A DNA stretch of 64,000 nt. Origin: Nitrosopumilaceae archaeon. GTDB taxonomy: Archaea; Thermoproteota; Nitrososphaeria; Nitrososphaerales; Nitrosopumilaceae. The DNA lies in the NCBI GenBank assembly GCA_965214835.1, contig CBDCCK010000002.1, positions 2,880,001 to 2,944,000 of the forward strand, written 5' to 3'. Below the pieces are notes generated by a model that was not told the DNA's origin, did no database searches, and was given only the letters and a program-made list of their open reading frames with translations. Both the position numbers and the translations under genes were made by a program. How positions within the stretch are numbered: position 1 is the stretch's first letter; every line of letters starts with the position of its first letter. This document shows, in pieces, positions 12,330 through 35,411 of this stretch.

Positions 12330-13360
12330 TTCAATGATTCCAGTCAGAAGCTTCCCAACGTCCCGGCCCCGTCCCTCCTTGAGAGGTACAAAAATGAGAC
12401 CGACTCCAAGGCCGCAGCCAGGCTGATGGCCTACATACGGCGCAAAAAAGGCGACTCGATACGCCAGATAGCCAAGCAGCTCGGCCGGGGGTACTCTACG
12501 ATACGCGACTGGCTGATACGGGCCATGCAGCTTGGCATACAGGGCAGGTACGACATCAAGAGGCCCGGCACCAAGATGTGGCCGGATGCAGGGAATCTCA
12601 AGCAGGTACGCGCCGACCTGATTGCGGGCCCGCGCAGCTGCGGATTAGAGTCGGAGGTGTGGACCGCACCGCTGCTTGCGGTACACATCAAAAAGAAATA
12701 CAAGGCAGACTATGCCGTCTCCAGCGTATACAAGATACTGCACATGCCTGGGCTTTTCATGCAGAAAGCCCCCCGCCCAAAGCACCCAAAACCAGCCTCA
12801 GAATCCGAGAAAGAGGAGTTCAAAAAAAGCTAGGCGGCATGTAAGATATTACTCGAAGAGAGGGTACACGGTAATGATAGGGGACGAGGCCTCGTTCATC
12901 CTTGGGTGGAACGTCAAGAACAGCTGGTACCCCGTGGGAAGGCCCGGTCTTTGCGCCGTCCAACCTGTCAAAGGAGAGGTTCTATTCGATCGGGGCCCTG
13001 TCGGCAAACGGACTTGGCTGCCGCTTTTACAAAAAGGCCAAGTACACGTTCATCAGGTTTCTCAAGGTGCTGCGCCGCAAGTACGGCAAGGTGCTGCTGT
13101 TTGTCGACAACGCATCGTATCACAGGGCAGCACTGGTCAGGGAGCAGCTGGCAGAATGGAATGGTGATGTAGTGCCAAAGTTCCTGCCGCCGTACACGCC
13201 GGAGCTGAGCTCGATAGAGGGGCAGTGGCGCGGGGTCAAAAAGGCAACTGCAAGCCGCCTGTATCAGACCGTCGGCGAGATGCAAAAGTCCATACGCGTT
13301 ATGTTGCGCAGGGGCGAGATCAAGATCTGCCAGATGGGCGATTATCTTAGCTAGATACTA
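12330..13360 (+). mobile_element. IS630-family element, transposase frameshifted
   Basis: HTH segment 12426-12833 and DDE segment (GDEASF, FVDNASYH, LPPYTPELSSIE) to 13354. Ends approximate. Confidence 0.85.
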
Positions 13361-13370
13361 AGCAATGACT

Positions 13371-14027
13371 CTAGACTTCAATTTTTTTCCGGGTCCATTT
13401 TCTTCTGTAGTGTACAAACGTGGCAGTCAGAACTGCTGCAGCGATAGTTACAGCTATCATTGTGTTGAAGACGGCATCCATGTTTGCGCCATCCTTCTGC
13501 ATTGGTAGAGTTTGCGGCTGTACTGTAACTGCTGTGTGTTCCTGTTTTATTTCCCTCTGTATATGCTCTGGGTGTTCCTGTATCGGTAGAGTTGGGACGG
13601 GTTCTGGGTGTAGTAAAACATTATCTACGTTGTCGAGTGCTGCCAGCCTGACCAAATCAGAAGGCGAAACTAAAATCACCGTATCGTAGCCCCCATAAGA
13701 CAGATAACATGATTTTGCCACCACACCTAATTCCTTTGGTATTGTACAGTCATCAGATTCAAACTTCACCAAAACATACAATCTTTCGCCATGAATGCTT
13801 TTTTCTGAGACATGCCTGCTCCCCATCACGCCGGTTTCCTCGTGATCCAGATAAAGCTGATACAGGCCATATGCAAGTCCGTTTCTTACGGCATCAGGTA
13901 TGTCCTCTCGCATCTCGTCTGGTTCGGTCTCCGTGGAGTTGGTCTGGACAAAGACAGGCGACATGATTAAAGGTATGAGCGCTAATAACAGCAACAGAAC
14001 AGTCCTGTTTTTGCCCAACGTTGCCAT
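13371..14027 (-). CDS. Secreted, C-terminally anchored protein resembling a free-standing S8 propeptide (copy 2)
   Basis: Signal peptide, ...SPSDLVRLAALDNVDNVLLHPEP..., C-terminal TM and RRKW tail; close paralog of 33051-33704. Confidence 0.75.
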   Translation of the reverse strand: MATLGKNRTVLLLLLALIPLIMSPVFVQTNSTETEPDEMREDIPDAVRNGLAYGLYQLYLDHEETGVMGSRHVSEKSIHGERLYVLVKFESDDCTIPKELGVVAKSCYLSYGGYDTVILVSPSDLVRLAALDNVDNVLLHPEPVPTLPIQEHPEHIQREIKQEHTAVTVQPQTLPMQKDGANMDAVFNTMIAVTIAAAVLTATFVHYRRKWTRKKIEV

Positions 14028-29205: not shown

Positions 29206-29653
29206 CGTCGTGGTCCCCCGCAAGGGCGGCTGCTTGGGCTACCTCCTTCTGGTTGCGTGGGTTCTGTATCCCGAGATAGTACATCAGTGTGCTTGTATCA
29301 AATGATATCAACAGGTCTGTGTTCTTTACAGGCATTAGAAGCCAGCCCCTTCAAGGGTGGAATGTATGGAGAAATTCTTCTTAAGCACATGATATGTTTA
29401 GCTTCCATGGGCTATAAGGATAAACTCACATGCGGCACCTCCGGCGATGGCAACAACGATTCCGATCCATACGACGTTCTCCTTTGTTATCTGTACCATT
29501 TGAATCTGCAAATTCGTTTTGCATATAAACACGCAAATCGGTGGCGCGCGTGGGATCATGTCCCAGCGTGGAATGGAACCGTTGGTTATGGCGTGTTAAC
29601 TTCCATGTGAGTCAGAATAAACGTAGTACAGCTAGCCTTGATAGGAAAACATA

Positions 29654-32600
29654 TCATGGAATCGTCATTCCAAACGGGCGCTCATAGTCGTTTCCGTTGT
29701 CGTCTGACGCGCTGATCCATAGCGCGTATGTCCCCGGGGCCAGGGACCCGGAGCTGAGCGTTACCGCTGCGGTGCCGTTGCCATGGTCTGCTACCGACAC
29801 GGACTCTGCCGGCAGCAGCACGTCTAGATGGACTGCGGTGATGGTAACGGCATCGCCCTCCGGATCCTGCGCGGTCACAGCAAACGTGGTGACTGCGTCC
29901 GTTATCACGATCGGTCCGTCATATGCGGCGCCGTCATGGTACAGCTCAAGGTCGGGCTCCTGGTTGTCGCCTGCCTTTTCATTTGCCGCGGCGGGGGGCG
30001 TATCGCCGGATGCCCTTGCAGACGAGCCCGATGCTGCATGCACCGGGCCCAGAGTGATGCCACGGGCGTCATCGATGTTGGCATCGGACAGCTCCACGCT
30101 CGTAGTCGCGTTGAGCCTTACGATGTTGTCGTCGTCCTTGTTTAGGACCAGGAGCATCTGGTGGCCGTCCAGCACTATGCCAAACGGCTCGTCAATCCCC
30201 GATGTCTCCTCGTTGATCAGGGAATTGTCCGCAACGTCGATCTCGTTTATCCTTCCCGAGTCATCTCCTGACATGTACAGGCTGGTGCCCGTCCCGTCAA
30301 ACCCCGTGCCGCAGTCAAGGCCGTATGCCTCGTGCGTGTTGGGTGACGAGGAGTCGATCTCGCCGATGTATGCGCCGTCCGATGCGTCATAGTACAGTAT
30401 CGCATCCCCCACGTAATCGGATACGTACATCCTGTCGTTGCAGAACACGACGTCTGTCGCCAGAACGACCGACGGTATGCTGCTTCCCCGCGGCGGCACT
30501 CTCAGCGCGTCGCCGAACAGCCCGTTGGAGTTGCCATACGAGTCAAAGGACTCGATGCCAAGCGCGTGTGCCACGTACAGCTGGCCGCCATGCCAGGTCA
30601 TTCCGCGCGGCTTGCTCTGCGGCGATGCCCAGGACGCATCTACCAGGGTCCCGTCGCCGCCGTCGTATGCCCTGATCTTGCCGTACCTGTAGTCGGATAC
30701 GTACAGGTCTCCGTCGAGTCCGAAGGCCAGGTCATACGGGCTGTCCAGCCCTCCGACGCCTGCGTCGACGAATGTTCCCGAGTACGTTCCGTCCTGCTGG
30801 TACACCAGGATGTCGTCGTCGTCCGTGTTTGCCACGTAGATGGAATATTCTGTCAGTGCCGTGGTCGTGGCGGTGTCGTCTGGATTGCCCGGCGCCCCCG
30901 TAATCCTGATGGCATCGACCATCAGGTCCTCAGACGAGCTGCTCGCCCTTGCCGTCAGTTTTATCTTGAACGTGTCGGTAAGGTGGCCTGTCAGGTCAAA
31001 CGTCTCGTGATGCCACGCGTCGTCGTCATCGACGTTTCCCTGCCAGTCAAACGCGCTGGTCCATGTCGTGCCGTTGTCTGACGATACGTCGACCCTGAGG
31101 TATTCCCCCGTATCGAGGCTGCGATCCACGTACCTGTACAGAGACAGCTCGGCAAACCCAAACCGTGCCAGGTCTACCGGCTCGGCCAGCGTCAGTATGC
31201 AGTCGCCGTCACAGTCGTCTGCCTCTGCGACAAGATTCGTCGCGGGATCCTGCCCGGGCGGATGCCCGCCCTCGTCAGGCGTTCCGACCCGCCAGTCGGG
31301 CTCGCCTGACTCTGTCCACGCGTCAAGCGAGTCAAAGTCGTCAGAGAACGCCGTCGGCACCTTCTGGCCGTGCACTATGACGTCGTCAATCTCCGCAAAC
31401 TCTGCCGGCTCGCTTGATCTTTCCAGGAACCTTACTGCAAACTGGCCGGTCAGGTACTGCTTTGGCAAGTCATGAGTGTGGCGGTGCCAGGTGTCGTCGT
31501 CCCCGTCCCCGTGCGTAAAGTCGTGCGAGTCGGCCCATGTCGTGCCGTTGTCGTGGCTTATGTGTACCCTCAGGTACTCCCCGCCGTCCATTCCGCTTGA
31601 GACGTACGCCCAAAAGCCAAATGACGCGTTAAGATACTCTGACAGATCGACTGCCGCCGTTCTGATGTGGCAGGATACGGCGCACGCGCCTGCGTGCGAG
31701 ACGTTGTTTGTCTGGCCGTGCCCGGGAACCGCGATCGTGTGGTTTCGGACTGCCCAGTCCCTTCCCGTGTCTGACTGAATCCACTGCGACAGGCCCGCAT
31801 CGAACCTGTCGATGAACGGGAACTCCATTGCGTTGACTGCGTTGACTAGGCCCGTTCCGTGCGTGTTGTTTTTTGGGTGGTAGTCCTTCGTGTTCTGCTC
31901 CAGCGCCTGCCGCACCTGATCGGGGGTATAGTGCGGGTTCTGCTCCTTGATCAGGGCCGCGACTCCCGCGACATGTGGCGTGGCCGCCGATGTTCCTGGA
32001 AAGAATGGATACGTGCTTGTCACTACCCAGTCAGGCCCTACGATGTCGGGCTTTGTCCTGCCGTCTGCCGTCGGTCCCCTGGATGAAAAGGCTTCCAGGC
32101 TCTCAGTGGAGTGGTGTACTGCTCCGGTCGTGACTGCGCCTTCTGCATCTCCTGGAATTGTTATGCTGCCTGCCGCAACCATGTGGGGCGCCTCGATTTC
32201 ATGGTTGAAGCTAATCAGCTTCAGGGTCTTGACTGCCGCGTTGCTTGCCTTTTCTACTCTTACCTCGTAGGTACCGGCAGACTGAACCGGATACAACAAG
32301 TACTCCACCGGATCATCATTTCCGTTTTGAATAGTCATACTACCTCTTACCATATGGTTTGTGCTGTTGTACAAGTACAAGTCATAGTTATTGCCGGATG
32401 ATCCCCAGGTATCATCCCAGGTTAATTCTAATTTTATTGTTCTATTTGCGGCAGACCAAATGTCTATACCGTCATCTGACACGCTAAAGTTATTCCAACT
32501 ATCCGAGTCCGGATCACTAAAGTTTCCGCTCCAGTGCTTGTTTGCAGCGTTTCCGGCTGATTTTATCCACGTAATGCCTGCATCACGCGCCTCGTTTATC

Positions 32601-33061
32601 TTCTGAGATGGCTCACTTGTGCCGTCGTAAGGTCCAATCCTAGGAATATACATGGACATTGTTACTATGTCGATGTCTCCGCGCTCTATGATGTGATCAA
32701 CCATCTCTGCGAATTTTCCAGTATTGAAATTATATAGATAAAGACTTGCGTTTGGCGCCACATCCAACACAATTTCTGCAACCCCGGTCCCATGATCAGT
32801 GGAGCCCCCCGCAGTTATGTCCGGAGTGTAACGAAAGGAGGTATGATTTGCGATGTTTGGCGCAATCTCGAGATTTGTCACGTTGAAGCCTATATCGATG
32901 ACCGCTATGTTGACTCCTTGGCCTGTGTATCCCATGCCGTTTACAAAATCAGATTCAATTGTTTGCACGCCCTGGGAGGTTATGTGACTTGCGTGCGCAG
33001 CCGTTGCTGCCAGAGACGTTGCAATCAGCACCGACAATAAAGTAATAACGCTAGACTTCAA
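29654..33061 (-). CDS. Large secreted S8 (subtilase) serine protease with PPC-like insert, two jelly-roll-like repeats, beta-propeller and Ig-like tail
   Basis: Catalytic triad motifs AVID, HGTGVAE, GTSAATPHVAG; FSSRGPT..GRTKPD. Likely TTG start at 33061 gives signal peptide MKSSVITLLSVLIATSLAATAAHA. Confidence 0.9.
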   Translation of the reverse strand: MKSSVITLLSVLIATSLAATAAHASHITSQGVQTIESDFVNGMGYTGQGVNIAVIDIGFNVTNLEIAPNIANHTSFRYTPDITAGGSTDHGTGVAEIVLDVAPNASLYLYNFNTGKFAEMVDHIIERGDIDIVTMSMYIPRIGPYDGTSEPSQKINEARDAGITWIKSAGNAANKHWSGNFSDPDSDSWNNFSVSDDGIDIWSAANRTIKLELTWDDTWGSSGNNYDLYLYNSTNHMVRGSMTIQNGNDDPVEYLLYPVQSAGTYEVRVEKASNAAVKTLKLISFNHEIEAPHMVAAGSITIPGDAEGAVTTGAVHHSTESLEAFSSRGPTADGRTKPDIVGPDWVVTSTYPFFPGTSAATPHVAGVAALIKEQNPHYTPDQVRQALEQNTKDYHPKNNTHGTGLVNAVNAMEFPFIDRFDAGLSQWIQSDTGRDWAVRNHTIAVPGHGQTNNVSHAGACAVSCHIRTAAVDLSEYLNASFGFWAYVSSGMDGGEYLRVHISHDNGTTWADSHDFTHGDGDDDTWHRHTHDLPKQYLTGQFAVRFLERSSEPAEFAEIDDVIVHGQKVPTAFSDDFDSLDAWTESGEPDWRVGTPDEGGHPPGQDPATNLVAEADDCDGDCILTLAEPVDLARFGFAELSLYRYVDRSLDTGEYLRVDVSSDNGTTWTSAFDWQGNVDDDDAWHHETFDLTGHLTDTFKIKLTARASSSSEDLMVDAIRITGAPGNPDDTATTTALTEYSIYVANTDDDDILVYQQDGTYSGTFVDAGVGGLDSPYDLAFGLDGDLYVSDYRYGKIRAYDGGDGTLVDASWASPQSKPRGMTWHGGQLYVAHALGIESFDSYGNSNGLFGDALRVPPRGSSIPSVVLATDVVFCNDRMYVSDYVGDAILYYDASDGAYIGEIDSSSPNTHEAYGLDCGTGFDGTGTSLYMSGDDSGRINEIDVADNSLINEETSGIDEPFGIVLDGHQMLLVLNKDDDNIVRLNATTSVELSDANIDDARGITLGPVHAASGSSARASGDTPPAAANEKAGDNQEPDLELYHDGAAYDGPIVITDAVTTFAVTAQDPEGDAVTITAVHLDVLLPAESVSVADHGNGTAAVTLSSGSLAPGTYALWISASDDNGNDYERPFGMTIP

Positions 33062-33704
33062 TTTTTTTCCTAGTCCATTTTCTTCTATAGTGTACAAACG
33101 TGGCAGTCAGAACTGCTGCAACGATAGTTGCAGCTATCATCGTGTTGAAGACGGCATCCATGTTTGTGTCTTCTTGTGGTATTGGTTGAGTTTGCGGTTG
33201 TGCTGTAACTGGATGCTCCTGTTTTATTTCCTCCTGTGTAGGTTCTAATTGCTGCTGCATTAATGAATCTGGGCCGGGTTCAGCTATTTCTAAGACGTTG
33301 TCTACATTATCAAGTTCTATTAGTCTAACCAAGTCAGAAGGTGAAATTAAAATCACCATCTCGTAGCCCCCGTAAGACAGATAACACGATTTTGCCACCA
33401 CGCCTAATGCCTTTGGTATTGTGCAGTCATCAGATTCGAACTCAACTAAAACATACAGCCTTTCACCATGAATGCTTTTTTCTGAGACATGCCTGCTCCC
33501 CATCACGCCGGTTTCCTCGTGCTCCAGATAAACCTGATACAGGCTATATGCAAGTCCGTTTCTTACGGCATCAGGTATGTCCTTTCGCACCTCGCCTAGT
33601 TCGGTCTCCGTGGAGTTGGTCTGGGCAAAGACAGGCGACATGATTAAAGGTATGAGCGTTAATAACAGCAACAGAACAGTCCTGTTTTTGTCCAACGTTG
33701 CCAT
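33051..33704 (-). CDS. Secreted, C-terminally anchored protein resembling a free-standing S8 propeptide (copy 1)
   Basis: Signal peptide; LYQVYL...LYVLVEF...ISPSDLVRLIELDNVDNV; Q/P-rich linker; TM and basic tail. Overlaps the protease start by 11 bp. Confidence 0.75.
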   Translation of the reverse strand: MATLDKNRTVLLLLLTLIPLIMSPVFAQTNSTETELGEVRKDIPDAVRNGLAYSLYQVYLEHEETGVMGSRHVSEKSIHGERLYVLVEFESDDCTIPKALGVVAKSCYLSYGGYEMVILISPSDLVRLIELDNVDNVLEIAEPGPDSLMQQQLEPTQEEIKQEHPVTAQPQTQPIPQEDTNMDAVFNTMIAATIVAAVLTATFVHYRRKWTRKKIEV

Positions 33705-33907
33705 TGTTGATACTGCATGGCTCTGCCTAATAAGATAGATCATCGCAGGTTCGTACTCTCATATACGAATTGTGGGATCCAGAAAGCAGTTCTCCCGTAA
33801 TGGGATGGCCCCTAGGCAGGATTGGAGTCACGGCCCTCTACCGAACATGTATGAAATTCGCATGTGACTGTGATCCTCGCGTCCAGATAATGACAGGTGC
33901 TGCCTGA

Positions 33908-35411
33908 TAGACTGTTGCATAACTCCGACTAGAGCCCAGCCAATCCTTCTGGATCACTACCGGTGCTCGGTTCCTACATGGCAGTCACCGCCTCTGCGAT
34001 CCACTTGTTGTACAGCCATATCCTCAGCTTTACCTCCTGCACTATGTTGGACCACTTGAGGGCCTTTACGTCCTCGCCGAACATGCGCTTTATGGCCGAT
34101 ATCACGATCTCGACGATCCATCTACTGCCAAAGCCGACCGTGCTCTTCCAGTACCGCAGGTTCTCCTGCCTCTCCTCCTTTGACAGGTTGCCCACCGGCA
34201 CCTCGGGGCCGCCCCCGAGCTGCCATCGCACCAGCCGGCCCCACTTGTCGCCGGCGCCCTTGCCCCTTGCAGTACAGCTTGTCAAAAGCCGTATGAGGGG
34301 CATTACGTCGTACTTGTAGCACTCGGCTACGTTCTTTCTAGAGCCGTATGCGCCGTCTGCAAGCAGGATCTTGCCAGGTGTAATCTGGTCCTCGCCGGTG
34401 CCGAGCATATCTAGCGGCGATCTCCCGTCTGCAAGCATGTTGGGGATCTTGATTGTATCCACGATGTCAGGGCAGTCCTGCTCCTCTTCCTTCTTGATGC
34501 TCTTGATTGTATCCACGATGTCAGGGCAGTCCTGCTCCTCTTCCTTCTTGATGCTCTTGATTGTATCCACGATGTCAGGGCAGTCCTGCTCCTCTTCCTT
34601 CTTGATGCTCTTGATTGTATCCACGATGTCAGGGCAGTCCTGCTCCTCTTCCTTCTTGATGCTCTTGATTGTATCCACGATGTCAGGGCAGTCCTGCTCC
34701 TCTTCCTTCTTGATGCTCTTGATTGTATCCACGATGTCAGGGCAGTCCTGCTCCTCTTCCTTCTTGATGCTCCTGGCCGCCTCCTCAAGCAGCGCAGGCA
34801 GCTCCGTGCTGTCGCCGACTGCCTCGCTTGTGACGGACACTGCCAGCACCTGCTTGGTGTCTGCGTCTACCATCAGGTGCATCTTGACGAACCCGCGCCT
34901 TACCTTCCATTTCTTGCGTATCCACTCGCCCCGGTTGTGCTGCTTGAGGCCCGTGGCATCGGCTATCATGACCAGGTTGTTGGACTTGTCGCGCACGGTA
35001 ATTATGTGCTCTGCAATGTCGACGTCAAGCTTCTGCATCCTCCTGAATATCGTGGTATAGCACGGCGAGTCCATACCCCTTAGCATTTCCCCGAACATGC
35101 CTGACAGCTGCCTGTACGGTATCATCAATGCGGTCCTGAGGGCGGCCGCGGCCATTATCATGCCTTCCGCGTACAGGAACGGGGCGCCCTCCTTGTGGCG
35201 GTTGGCATCCTTGAGATCCTTCTCCCAGCCGGGGTCGTGCTTGACGACCAGGCCGGCTCCCCTCTCTACGTACTTTGCGTTATCCGTGTGTGTCAACTGA
35301 TACCATACAAGGCATCCTCATGATCCATTACTTTTTCGGCCAAGTTTCGTTGATCATTATGGTGATTTTCGGTCAAGTTTCAGATTTTAGGCAGGGTTAT
35401 GCAACAGTCTA
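33908..35411 (-). mobile_element. IS5-family (IS903-like) element; open 440-aa transposase at 33974-35296
   Basis: TIR TAGACTGTTGCATAAC; 8-bp direct flank CTGCCTGA; ADATGLK...RGEW, LADGAY, RWIVE. Confidence 0.9.
34447..34772. repeat. Six perfect tandem copies of a 54-bp unit, in frame inside the transposase
   Basis: Encodes (SIKKEEEQDCPDIVDTIK)6. Confidence 0.97.

Follow-up and report, generated by a model that had tools for sequence, protein, structure and literature searches.

The stretch of DNA analysed here (the window) comprises 64,000 nucleotides of a genome from the Nitrosopumilaceae, a group of ammonia-oxidising archaea (GenBank assembly GCA_965214835.1, contig CBDCCK010000002.1, forward-strand positions 2,880,001 to 2,944,000). 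It encodes a secreted subtilisin-like protease (subtilase) of the S8 family without the usual N-terminal prodomain and, directly upstream, a small membrane-anchored protein (the partner) whose globular domain is, by modelled fold and sequence descent, a subtilase prodomain. Comparison of sequences across genera identifies protease and partner as a conserved, translationally coupled two-gene unit. We lean towards the reading that the partner is a membrane-tethered prodomain acting in trans, which would aid folding of the protease and inhibit it transiently. The demonstrated ground for this reading is the anatomy of the two genes, the fold and homology of the partner domain, the conserved coupling and the intact catalytic residues. 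The features of the unit are as follows.

29654..33061, minus strand: prodomain-less secreted S8 subtilase of 1135 amino acids (aa), without a C-terminal membrane anchor (open reading frame (ORF) list, Pfam, C-terminal hydropathy 0.99)
31830..32989, minus strand: catalytic domain of the protease with D56, H90, S358 and oxyanion N171, and a beta-rich insert as in CspB (alignment A6, model, Foldseek)
29657..31829, minus strand: C-terminal accessory region of the protease, containing beta-sandwich-like repeats, a stretch resembling a propeller and, at its end, an Ig-like module (weak Pfam matches, homologue annotation)
33051..33061, minus strand: 11-bp overlap, the protease TTG lying within the last codons of the partner gene in the +1 frame (sequence, junction comparison)
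33051..33704, minus strand: stand-alone membrane-anchored prodomain-fold gene, 217 aa (ORF, model and fold searches, profile match to fused prodomains)
33624..33704, minus strand: predicted signal peptide of the partner, residues 1-27 (sequence reading; helix 6-21 in the model; putative cleavage site)
33267..33578, minus strand: prodomain/I9-type domain, about residues 43-146, with a four-stranded sheet (82-139) and helices (model, fold matches, alignment A9)
33162..33266, minus strand: Q/P/E-rich linker, about residues 147-181, a candidate cleavage region (low predicted local distance difference test score, pLDDT)
33054..33149, minus strand: C-terminal transmembrane helix and basic cytoplasmic tail (hydropathy; helix 182-213 in the model; junction comparison)

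Anatomy of the two genes and their junction

The protease is an S8 enzyme, with the Asp-His-Ser triad in that order and the oxyanion Asn, all four invariant over 14 aligned relatives (alignment A6, columns D32, H66, N147 and S334, offset 24). The Pfam model Peptidase_S8 matches residues 47-398 (E 2.6e-27, 96 bits against a cut-off of 21.8), the predicted model of the catalytic part retrieves CspB (4I0W) as its top Foldseek match (E 1e-20), and Tk-SP is the best PDB sequence match of the S8 profile. An earlier note on this DNA had described the protein as running from its signal peptide straight into the start of the mature enzyme, and this is what was found: the signal peptide has 24 residues, a mature-type start follows directly after residue 24, and no prodomain was detected between the two, either here or in the nine closest homologues, an N-terminal propeptide being a usual and not a universal feature of the S8 family. 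The initiator is a TTG at 33061 and not an ATG, the reading frame ending at 29654 on the minus strand. In the C-terminal region all Pfam matches are weak and below cut-off, PF01436 and PF21471 are precomputed on close homologues, and the module labels listed for 29657..31829 are in part tentative.

Two side observations concern the composition of the protease. The guanine-plus-cytosine content climbs along 29654-33704, from 0.44 in the partner gene through 0.50 in the catalytic part to 0.61 in the C-terminal part (nearby housekeeping genes 0.58-0.59), a gradient consistent with a mosaic or acquired origin. A 1779-aa S8 protease of another subfamily with an apparent fused prodomain of its own (L004 2243-8859; G000 C2, about 662-669 kb) has a C-terminal region in common with the window protease (41.5% over 751 columns), which suggests, from the alignment, domain shuffling between S8 types; its gene overlaps a downstream 426-aa gene that reads as serpin-like.

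The description of the upstream gene also held, including the 11-bp overlap, the signal peptide, the globular domain, the Q/P linker, the C-terminal transmembrane helix and the basic tail. The domain contains a Cys pair that is also found in the orthologues of genome G665 (alignment A9), and the codons of the basic tail contain a purine-rich stretch that precedes the protease TTG. The genome (3.2 Mb, two contigs, transposase-rich) has four such anchored upstream genes, of which three are followed by the start of a prodomain-less S8 and one by a seven-codon remnant. Of these four, the window locus alone is fully intact: at L001 the catalytic domain is intact and the gene is later interrupted by an insertion sequence, at L002 the protease is broken, and the remaining locus lies within the window itself.

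13371..14027, minus strand: second, orphan anchored prodomain gene, 218 aa, 80% identical (tblastn, alignments)
13358..13381, minus strand: seven-codon remnant of a protease start behind this second copy, reaching up to an insertion sequence (about 12426-13354)

The insertion sequence is, as we take it from its motifs, IS630-like. Two orphan partner genes (window 13371-14027 and L346 1366-2118) encode Val as the final residue of the predicted signal peptide, where the paired copy has Ala, a substitution that could hinder cleavage.

Such a genome raises the possibility of decay or artefact, that is, a broken zymogen gene among insertion sequences, without function as a pair; three of its four loci are indeed interrupted by insertion sequences or frameshifts. 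This explanation is largely refuted, and we give it hardly any credence. Assembled contigs of runs X1, X2 and X4, which come from two studies and one of which may be the window's own source, span 29560-33117 or 29509-33117 with 0 differences and 0 gaps. An assembly error at the run of seven A at the junction is thereby ruled out, since the contigs of all three runs cross it unchanged, and the argument in the earlier note against a simple frameshift split stands. Moreover, orthologous intact pairs occur in other genera, the catalytic residues are invariant, and the ratio of non-synonymous to synonymous substitution rates (dN/dS) between the two window copies of the partner is 0.18 in the domain and 0.14 in anchor and tail, against 0.52 in the linker; by this measure the domain and the anchor are under purifying selection.

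Descent of the partner domain and conservation of the pair

The partner protein matched 0 Pfam families and none in NCBIfam. Because no Pfam family matched the partner alone, its identity as a prodomain had to be established by profiles and structure. An AlphaFold2 model built from an 83-row alignment has pLDDT 88-97 across residues 41-140, which form a four-stranded sheet with packed helices. The prodomain fold supposed for this domain was recovered by the fold searches, with the prodomains of Tk-SP, CspB and Tk-subtilisin and the inhibitor POIA1 on top. No Foldseek match reached E <= 0.001; rows 1 and 3, above that threshold, are the CspB prodomain and POIA1. In a second structural search (VIA), subtilase prodomains made up 17 of the 18 top rows, with Z 6.9 for the Tk-subtilisin propeptide (root-mean-square deviation (rmsd) 1.7, 58 aligned) and Z 5.1 for POIA1 (rmsd 3.4, 65 aligned). 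A Foldseek-independent search of 48,161 chains returned the Tk-SP pro region as the sole match at Z >= 8 (Z 8.5, rmsd 3.1, 81 aligned). These Z values are middling given how common the fold is, with prodomains occupying the top ranks. An Atlas feature search placed a CspB-prodomain cluster first (0.94, 134 shared features), which is a lead only.

Homology to the prodomains fused to related S8 enzymes was likewise detected: a 9-sequence profile of stand-alone proteins matched a profile of 15 fused prodomains with a probability of 96.6% (E 6.5e-10), two of the nine rows being sister-clade proteins very near two of the fused rows. The L001 paralogue alone reached a probability of 62% (E 7e-5). 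The Pfam model Inhibitor_I9 matched 0 of the 83 partner-family members and CspB_prodomain 2 of 83 (best E 4.5e-7, the window protein not among them), and searching PDB sequences with the 83-row profile turned up no meaningful match.

A survey of relatives shows how closely the two genes keep together. Among 120 database homologues of the protease, the N-terminus has a detectable fused prodomain in 105, is long and unmatched in 3 and is short in 12, the last group being made up of the query and its nine nearest relatives (identity 55-58%), together with a distant protein and a fragment. A careful tree built from 31 catalytic domains (P0157 and P0159 omitted as duplicates of L293 and L292) places the window protease in a clade of 12 rows with 100/100 support, here the core clade, all 12 of which are prodomain-less. 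Genomic context is available for five rows (the window, L001, two from G665 and one from G664), with the broken L002 as a sixth locus, and an anchored gene lies directly upstream in all six (window, L001, L002, L292, L293, L337); the pair is thus a coupled neighbourhood across genera, by the kind of survey that the earlier note had proposed. For the seven members lacking context (P0154-P0156, P0158 and P0160-P0162), close-homologue searches (a word-based one finding 3 close proteins, a profile one 6) and a cluster look-up placed no partners. The G665 partners have the same Cys pair and the same 11-bp overlap with a TTG start. The overlap measures 11 bp in the window and at both G665 loci, 14 bp at three other loci and 4 bp in the sister clade (G019, G067 and G088), and the junction comparison found overlap, start codon and purine-rich pre-start stretch conserved. 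In the sister clade, two of the four prodomain-less S8s have an upstream partner (L060 and L063). The contig and genome scans used here and below are samples and were made with the S8 alignment, the 83-row partner alignment being too divergent for a contig scan; generic subtilases dominated the genome matches listed. Since the subfamily is present in 41 of 401 genomes of the family by the S8 search, the split form is rare and patchy.

The shape of the junction could also be read as +1 ribosomal frameshifting or slippage, which would yield a single chain of prodomain, membrane hairpin and catalytic domain. Each of the six intact junctions in the core clade is +1; five of them have an open +1 frame upstream of the TTG, and five have an A run of 5-7. 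We regard this reading as very improbable. The G665 C135 junction has no A run, the sister-clade pairs have a 4-bp stop-start overlap in another frame, every junction has a start codon after a purine-rich stretch followed by a full second signal peptide, and the G664 orphan has lost the TTG together with the protease.

Several observations on the relatives stand apart from these questions. G664, which is placed in another genus, has in common with G000, the window genome, a block of 4.7 kb (96.8% identity) and insertion sequences that are up to 97% identical (L337 7250-12001, L346), whereas two housekeeping-type stretches are 74-80% identical and the partner genes 83-87%. The G664 partner variant occurs in the same sequencing runs as the window genome, and the pattern of identities suggests gene exchange between co-occurring archaea. 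At L023 (G025 C30, about 15.2-17 kb), an S8 protease with a different beta-rich N-terminal domain replacing the prodomain lies directly downstream of a fused-type S8. At L059 3029-7517 (G067), the reading frame of a fused-type S8 is broken soon after the start of the catalytic domain, which may reflect a pseudogene or an assembly error.

A proposed tethered prodomain in trans and its precedents

On the favoured reading of the partner as a trans-acting prodomain, the two genes would be translated as a coupled unit and each product exported by its own signal peptide. The partner would be retained in the membrane through its C-terminal helix, with the prodomain-fold domain outside on a flexible linker, where it would bind the newly exported prodomain-less subtilase in trans. 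The bound domain would promote folding and block the active site for a time, and the anchorless protease would then be released, probably by cutting of the linker or of the partner. Because the C-terminus of its domain runs on into the linker, the partner resembles an uncut zymogen junction, so that cleavage there would be expected to free the enzyme. Binding, help in folding, inhibition and release by cleavage are inferred here, with the systems described below as precedents.

The closest precedent is the Aeromonas sobria protease ASP, which requires the adjacent ORF2 for maturation and is also inhibited by it (half-maximal inhibitory concentration 84 nM); the ORF2 gene lies immediately downstream of ASP, and ORF2 places its C-terminal Lys at the catalytic site (PMC5638518). 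In a 2022 survey, ASP is the exception to propeptide-assisted folding, and AspA is one of two subtilases without a propeptide (PMC9549277). The archaeal pair likewise combines a subtilase that lacks a propeptide with a neighbouring gene encoding a separate partner. However, ASP is bacterial and kexin-like (S8B), whereas the window enzyme is an archaeal S8 of the CspB/Tk-SP type; ORF2 is encoded downstream and acts with a free C-terminal Lys in the active site, whereas the archaeal partner is encoded upstream and ends in a membrane helix. The archaeal partner, unlike ORF2 as described, is moreover detectably homologous to the cis prodomains of sister enzymes. ORF2 is reportedly soluble, with a propeptide-like fold; it was not among the rows listed by the three fold searches with the partner, although its family may be represented unlisted. 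Taken by analogy, the pair most likely works like ASP and ORF2 and is not a member of that system. The locus thus points to a second, independent exception to folding on an N-terminal propeptide beside ASP, archaeal and membrane-tethered.

Clostridium CspB (4I0W), the top Foldseek row for both halves of the pair, has the internal beta-rich insert and a similar prodomain. It differs in being a single chain with a cis prodomain, in its role in spore germination and in having no separate anchored gene. Deletion of the CspB prodomain lowered the yield and co-expression in trans restored folding, an effect that is cognate-specific, and the prodomain, which folding requires, also occludes the active site (PMC3567191). 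The best structural matches of the partner domain are two Thermococcus kodakarensis enzymes, Tk-SP and Tk-subtilisin (3AFG, 4JP8), both single-chain zymogens. In sponge-associated ammonia-oxidising archaea, members of the same archaeal group, secreted anchorless S08A proteases are expanded to multiple copies; the inhibitors described for them are serpins, and the word 'propeptide' does not occur in the main text (PMC6790972). PMC13492141 and PMC3599501 add confirmation only. No account of the pair or of the anchored family was found in the full-text literature, a coverage that excludes supplements and most subscription journals. The principle has precedent; the archaeal tethered form, its origin from cis prodomains and the natural intermediates look undescribed.

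Stand-alone relatives of propeptides suggest a different role. POIA1, the yeast peptidase B inhibitor, Arabidopsis propeptide-like inhibitor 1, TgMIC5 and Plasmodium SUB1-ProM are propeptide-like inhibitors, and the SUB1-ProM gene adjoins subtilase genes, SUB1 itself having a propeptide (PMC6993865). Like the partner, these mimics are separate genes with a propeptide fold; all are eukaryotic. To our knowledge their target proteases keep their own propeptides, and we know of no mimic with a C-terminal membrane anchor.

The partner could accordingly be an inhibitor only, which would protect the cell surface against subtilases, whether the cell's own or foreign, while the protease would fold without help after losing a prodomain that it no longer required. 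We consider this unlikely, though a serious contender. It is favoured by the inhibitory nature of the mimics, by the report that in hyperthermophilic archaea the subtilase propeptides act as inhibitors and are not required for folding (PMC10580911), by 13 loci at which a stand-alone gene lies beside an S8 that keeps its prodomain, where help in folding would be redundant, by the existence of prodomain-less S8s without the neighbour, and by branch dN/dS values of 0.29 and 0.18 for the orphan copies (0.12 for the paired copy). The orphan branches, however, mix time before and after the loss of the protease, so that these values are no proof of function as orphans; the lone prodomain-less S8s of the sister clade have a stand-alone prodomain gene elsewhere in the genome (G067 and G088), which could act from a distance; and the linkage at six of six loci with conserved translational coupling in the core clade argues for more than inhibition.

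A lasting complex in which the partner mainly keeps the anchorless protease at the cell surface is another alternative, and an improbable one. None of the nine core-clade proteases checked has a C-terminal anchor, and CspB retains its prodomain bound (PMC3567191). A hydrophobic C-terminus is nevertheless found in 16 of 109 fused relatives, which are thus mostly anchorless too, so that loss of the prodomain created no need for an anchor, and contact of the prodomain type normally blocks the active site.

Other observations weigh against the trans-acting prodomain itself. The C-terminus of the partner is not free, unlike that of ORF2 or of cleaved prodomains; taken singly, the window partner gives a weak match to the fused-prodomain profile (probability 1.7%, E 0.03); and context covers 5 of the 12 members of the core clade. 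The earlier note had named homologues lacking both propeptide and neighbour as evidence against its proposal, and such enzymes occur, in part of the relatives: two of the four prodomain-less S8s of the sister clade (L339 in G067, and L338 in G088 with 555 bp visible upstream), and one further family member (L023) and six distant homologues, in which neither prodomain nor neighbouring gene was detected; in the three genomes searched for a stand-alone copy serving these last enzymes, none was found. Conversely, orphan partner genes without a protease behind them are present in the window (at 14 kb), at L346 of G664, where a decayed signal-peptide remnant follows, and at L062 of G019. That the pro-domain of this protease became its trans-acting partner stands as to prodomain fold and homology, and does not stand in its simple form, since the 13 doubled loci indicate that the partner is not merely the enzyme's own prodomain cut off.

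A wider family and its possible history

Searched against 1.84 billion representatives, the partner profile gave 1199 matches at E <= 0.001. The best 150 of the 1199 divide into 46 fused to an S8, 100 short proteins and 4 long ones that lack an S8. A C-terminal hydrophobic helix is present in 55 of the 100 short proteins; the other 45 include 13 with a lipobox-like motif, 24 with a hydrophobic N-terminus and at least 3 plain zymogen fragments. An unannotated family of small anchored proteins is thereby exposed. Seven proteins without S8 (P0005, P0012, P0036, P0087 and P0004, P0006, P0007) have two to six tandem prodomain-like domains and are possible multi-headed inhibitors or chaperones.

In a sample of 104 distinct S8 loci, 78 were scored as fused by hidden Markov model (HMM). 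The remaining 26, inspected by eye, comprised 13 whose prodomain is visible though unscored, 2 truncated at a contig end or gap, 4 split pairs, and 7 enzymes that are prodomain-less and have no neighbour. The doubled arrangement, in which a separate prodomain-like gene stands upstream of an S8 with a prodomain of its own, accounts for 13 of the 104 loci (ten read, three by HMM only). In a further arrangement, at L117 3213-6994 (a Thermoleophilia bin), two paralogous S8s directly adjoin, the upstream one prodomain-less and the other with an N-terminus that is prodomain-like, possibly another way to use one prodomain for two S8s.

The prodomain tree often clusters stand-alone with fused domains by locus or lineage and not by state; with 112 columns this tree is weak and gives no direction for fusion or loss. 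On the S8 tree the prodomain-less label needs four changes, at least three of them forced by well-supported branches, and a single origin of the prodomain-less state is rejected (approximately unbiased (AU) test, p 0.006), the group tested having been set by N-terminal anatomy and chosen after an earlier quick S8 tree. Fused and prodomain-less enzymes are mixed within genomes of the sister clade, a pattern that fits loss after duplication and re-fusion alike. A simple one-time fission as the whole story is ruled out by the 13 doubled loci together with the at least three changes on the S8 tree. It is more economical to suppose that the cis copy was lost once a stand-alone copy was already present, because stand-alone genes adjoin S8s with their own prodomain. 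The history would then be one in which anchored stand-alone copies beside intact zymogens were widespread and some lineages subsequently lost the cis prodomain.

A broader proposal, which we put forward tentatively and with some doubt, is that these proteins form an undescribed and widespread prokaryotic family of membrane-anchored stand-alone prodomains (held by a C-terminal helix in these archaea, and by a lipobox or N-terminal anchor in many others) that may provide CspB-like subtilases with a station at the cell surface. The station would, in several lineages of the Nitrosopumilaceae, have taken over the folding role, with the enzyme folding on a tethered external prodomain and being freed by cutting of the tether, and one station may serve several unlinked prodomain-less proteases. 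The family would contain the whole natural series, from cis through cis plus trans to trans only, and switching between these states would have happened repeatedly. Close relatives, sometimes within one genome, show the fused, doubled, split and orphan states, and because the partner is also traceable to cis prodomains, the step from an intramolecular to an external chaperone is directly testable with natural variants. A practical prediction is that these archaeal proteases may need the neighbouring gene for heterologous production.

The region ahead of the unit contains the following gene.

33974..35296, minus strand: DDE transposase directly upstream of the pair (Pfam DDE_Tnp_1, E 4.5e-18)

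A scan for bacterial promoters and terminators, whose model excludes archaeal promoters, stayed at chance level. An AT-rich hexamer ends about 23 bp upstream of the partner ATG and is a possible archaeal promoter for a leaderless transcript. The identity of the two partner copies in the window starts about 50 bp before the ATG and takes in this hexamer (window 33720-33755). The transposase (33974-35296, minus strand) contains about six perfect in-frame tandem copies of an 18-residue unit.

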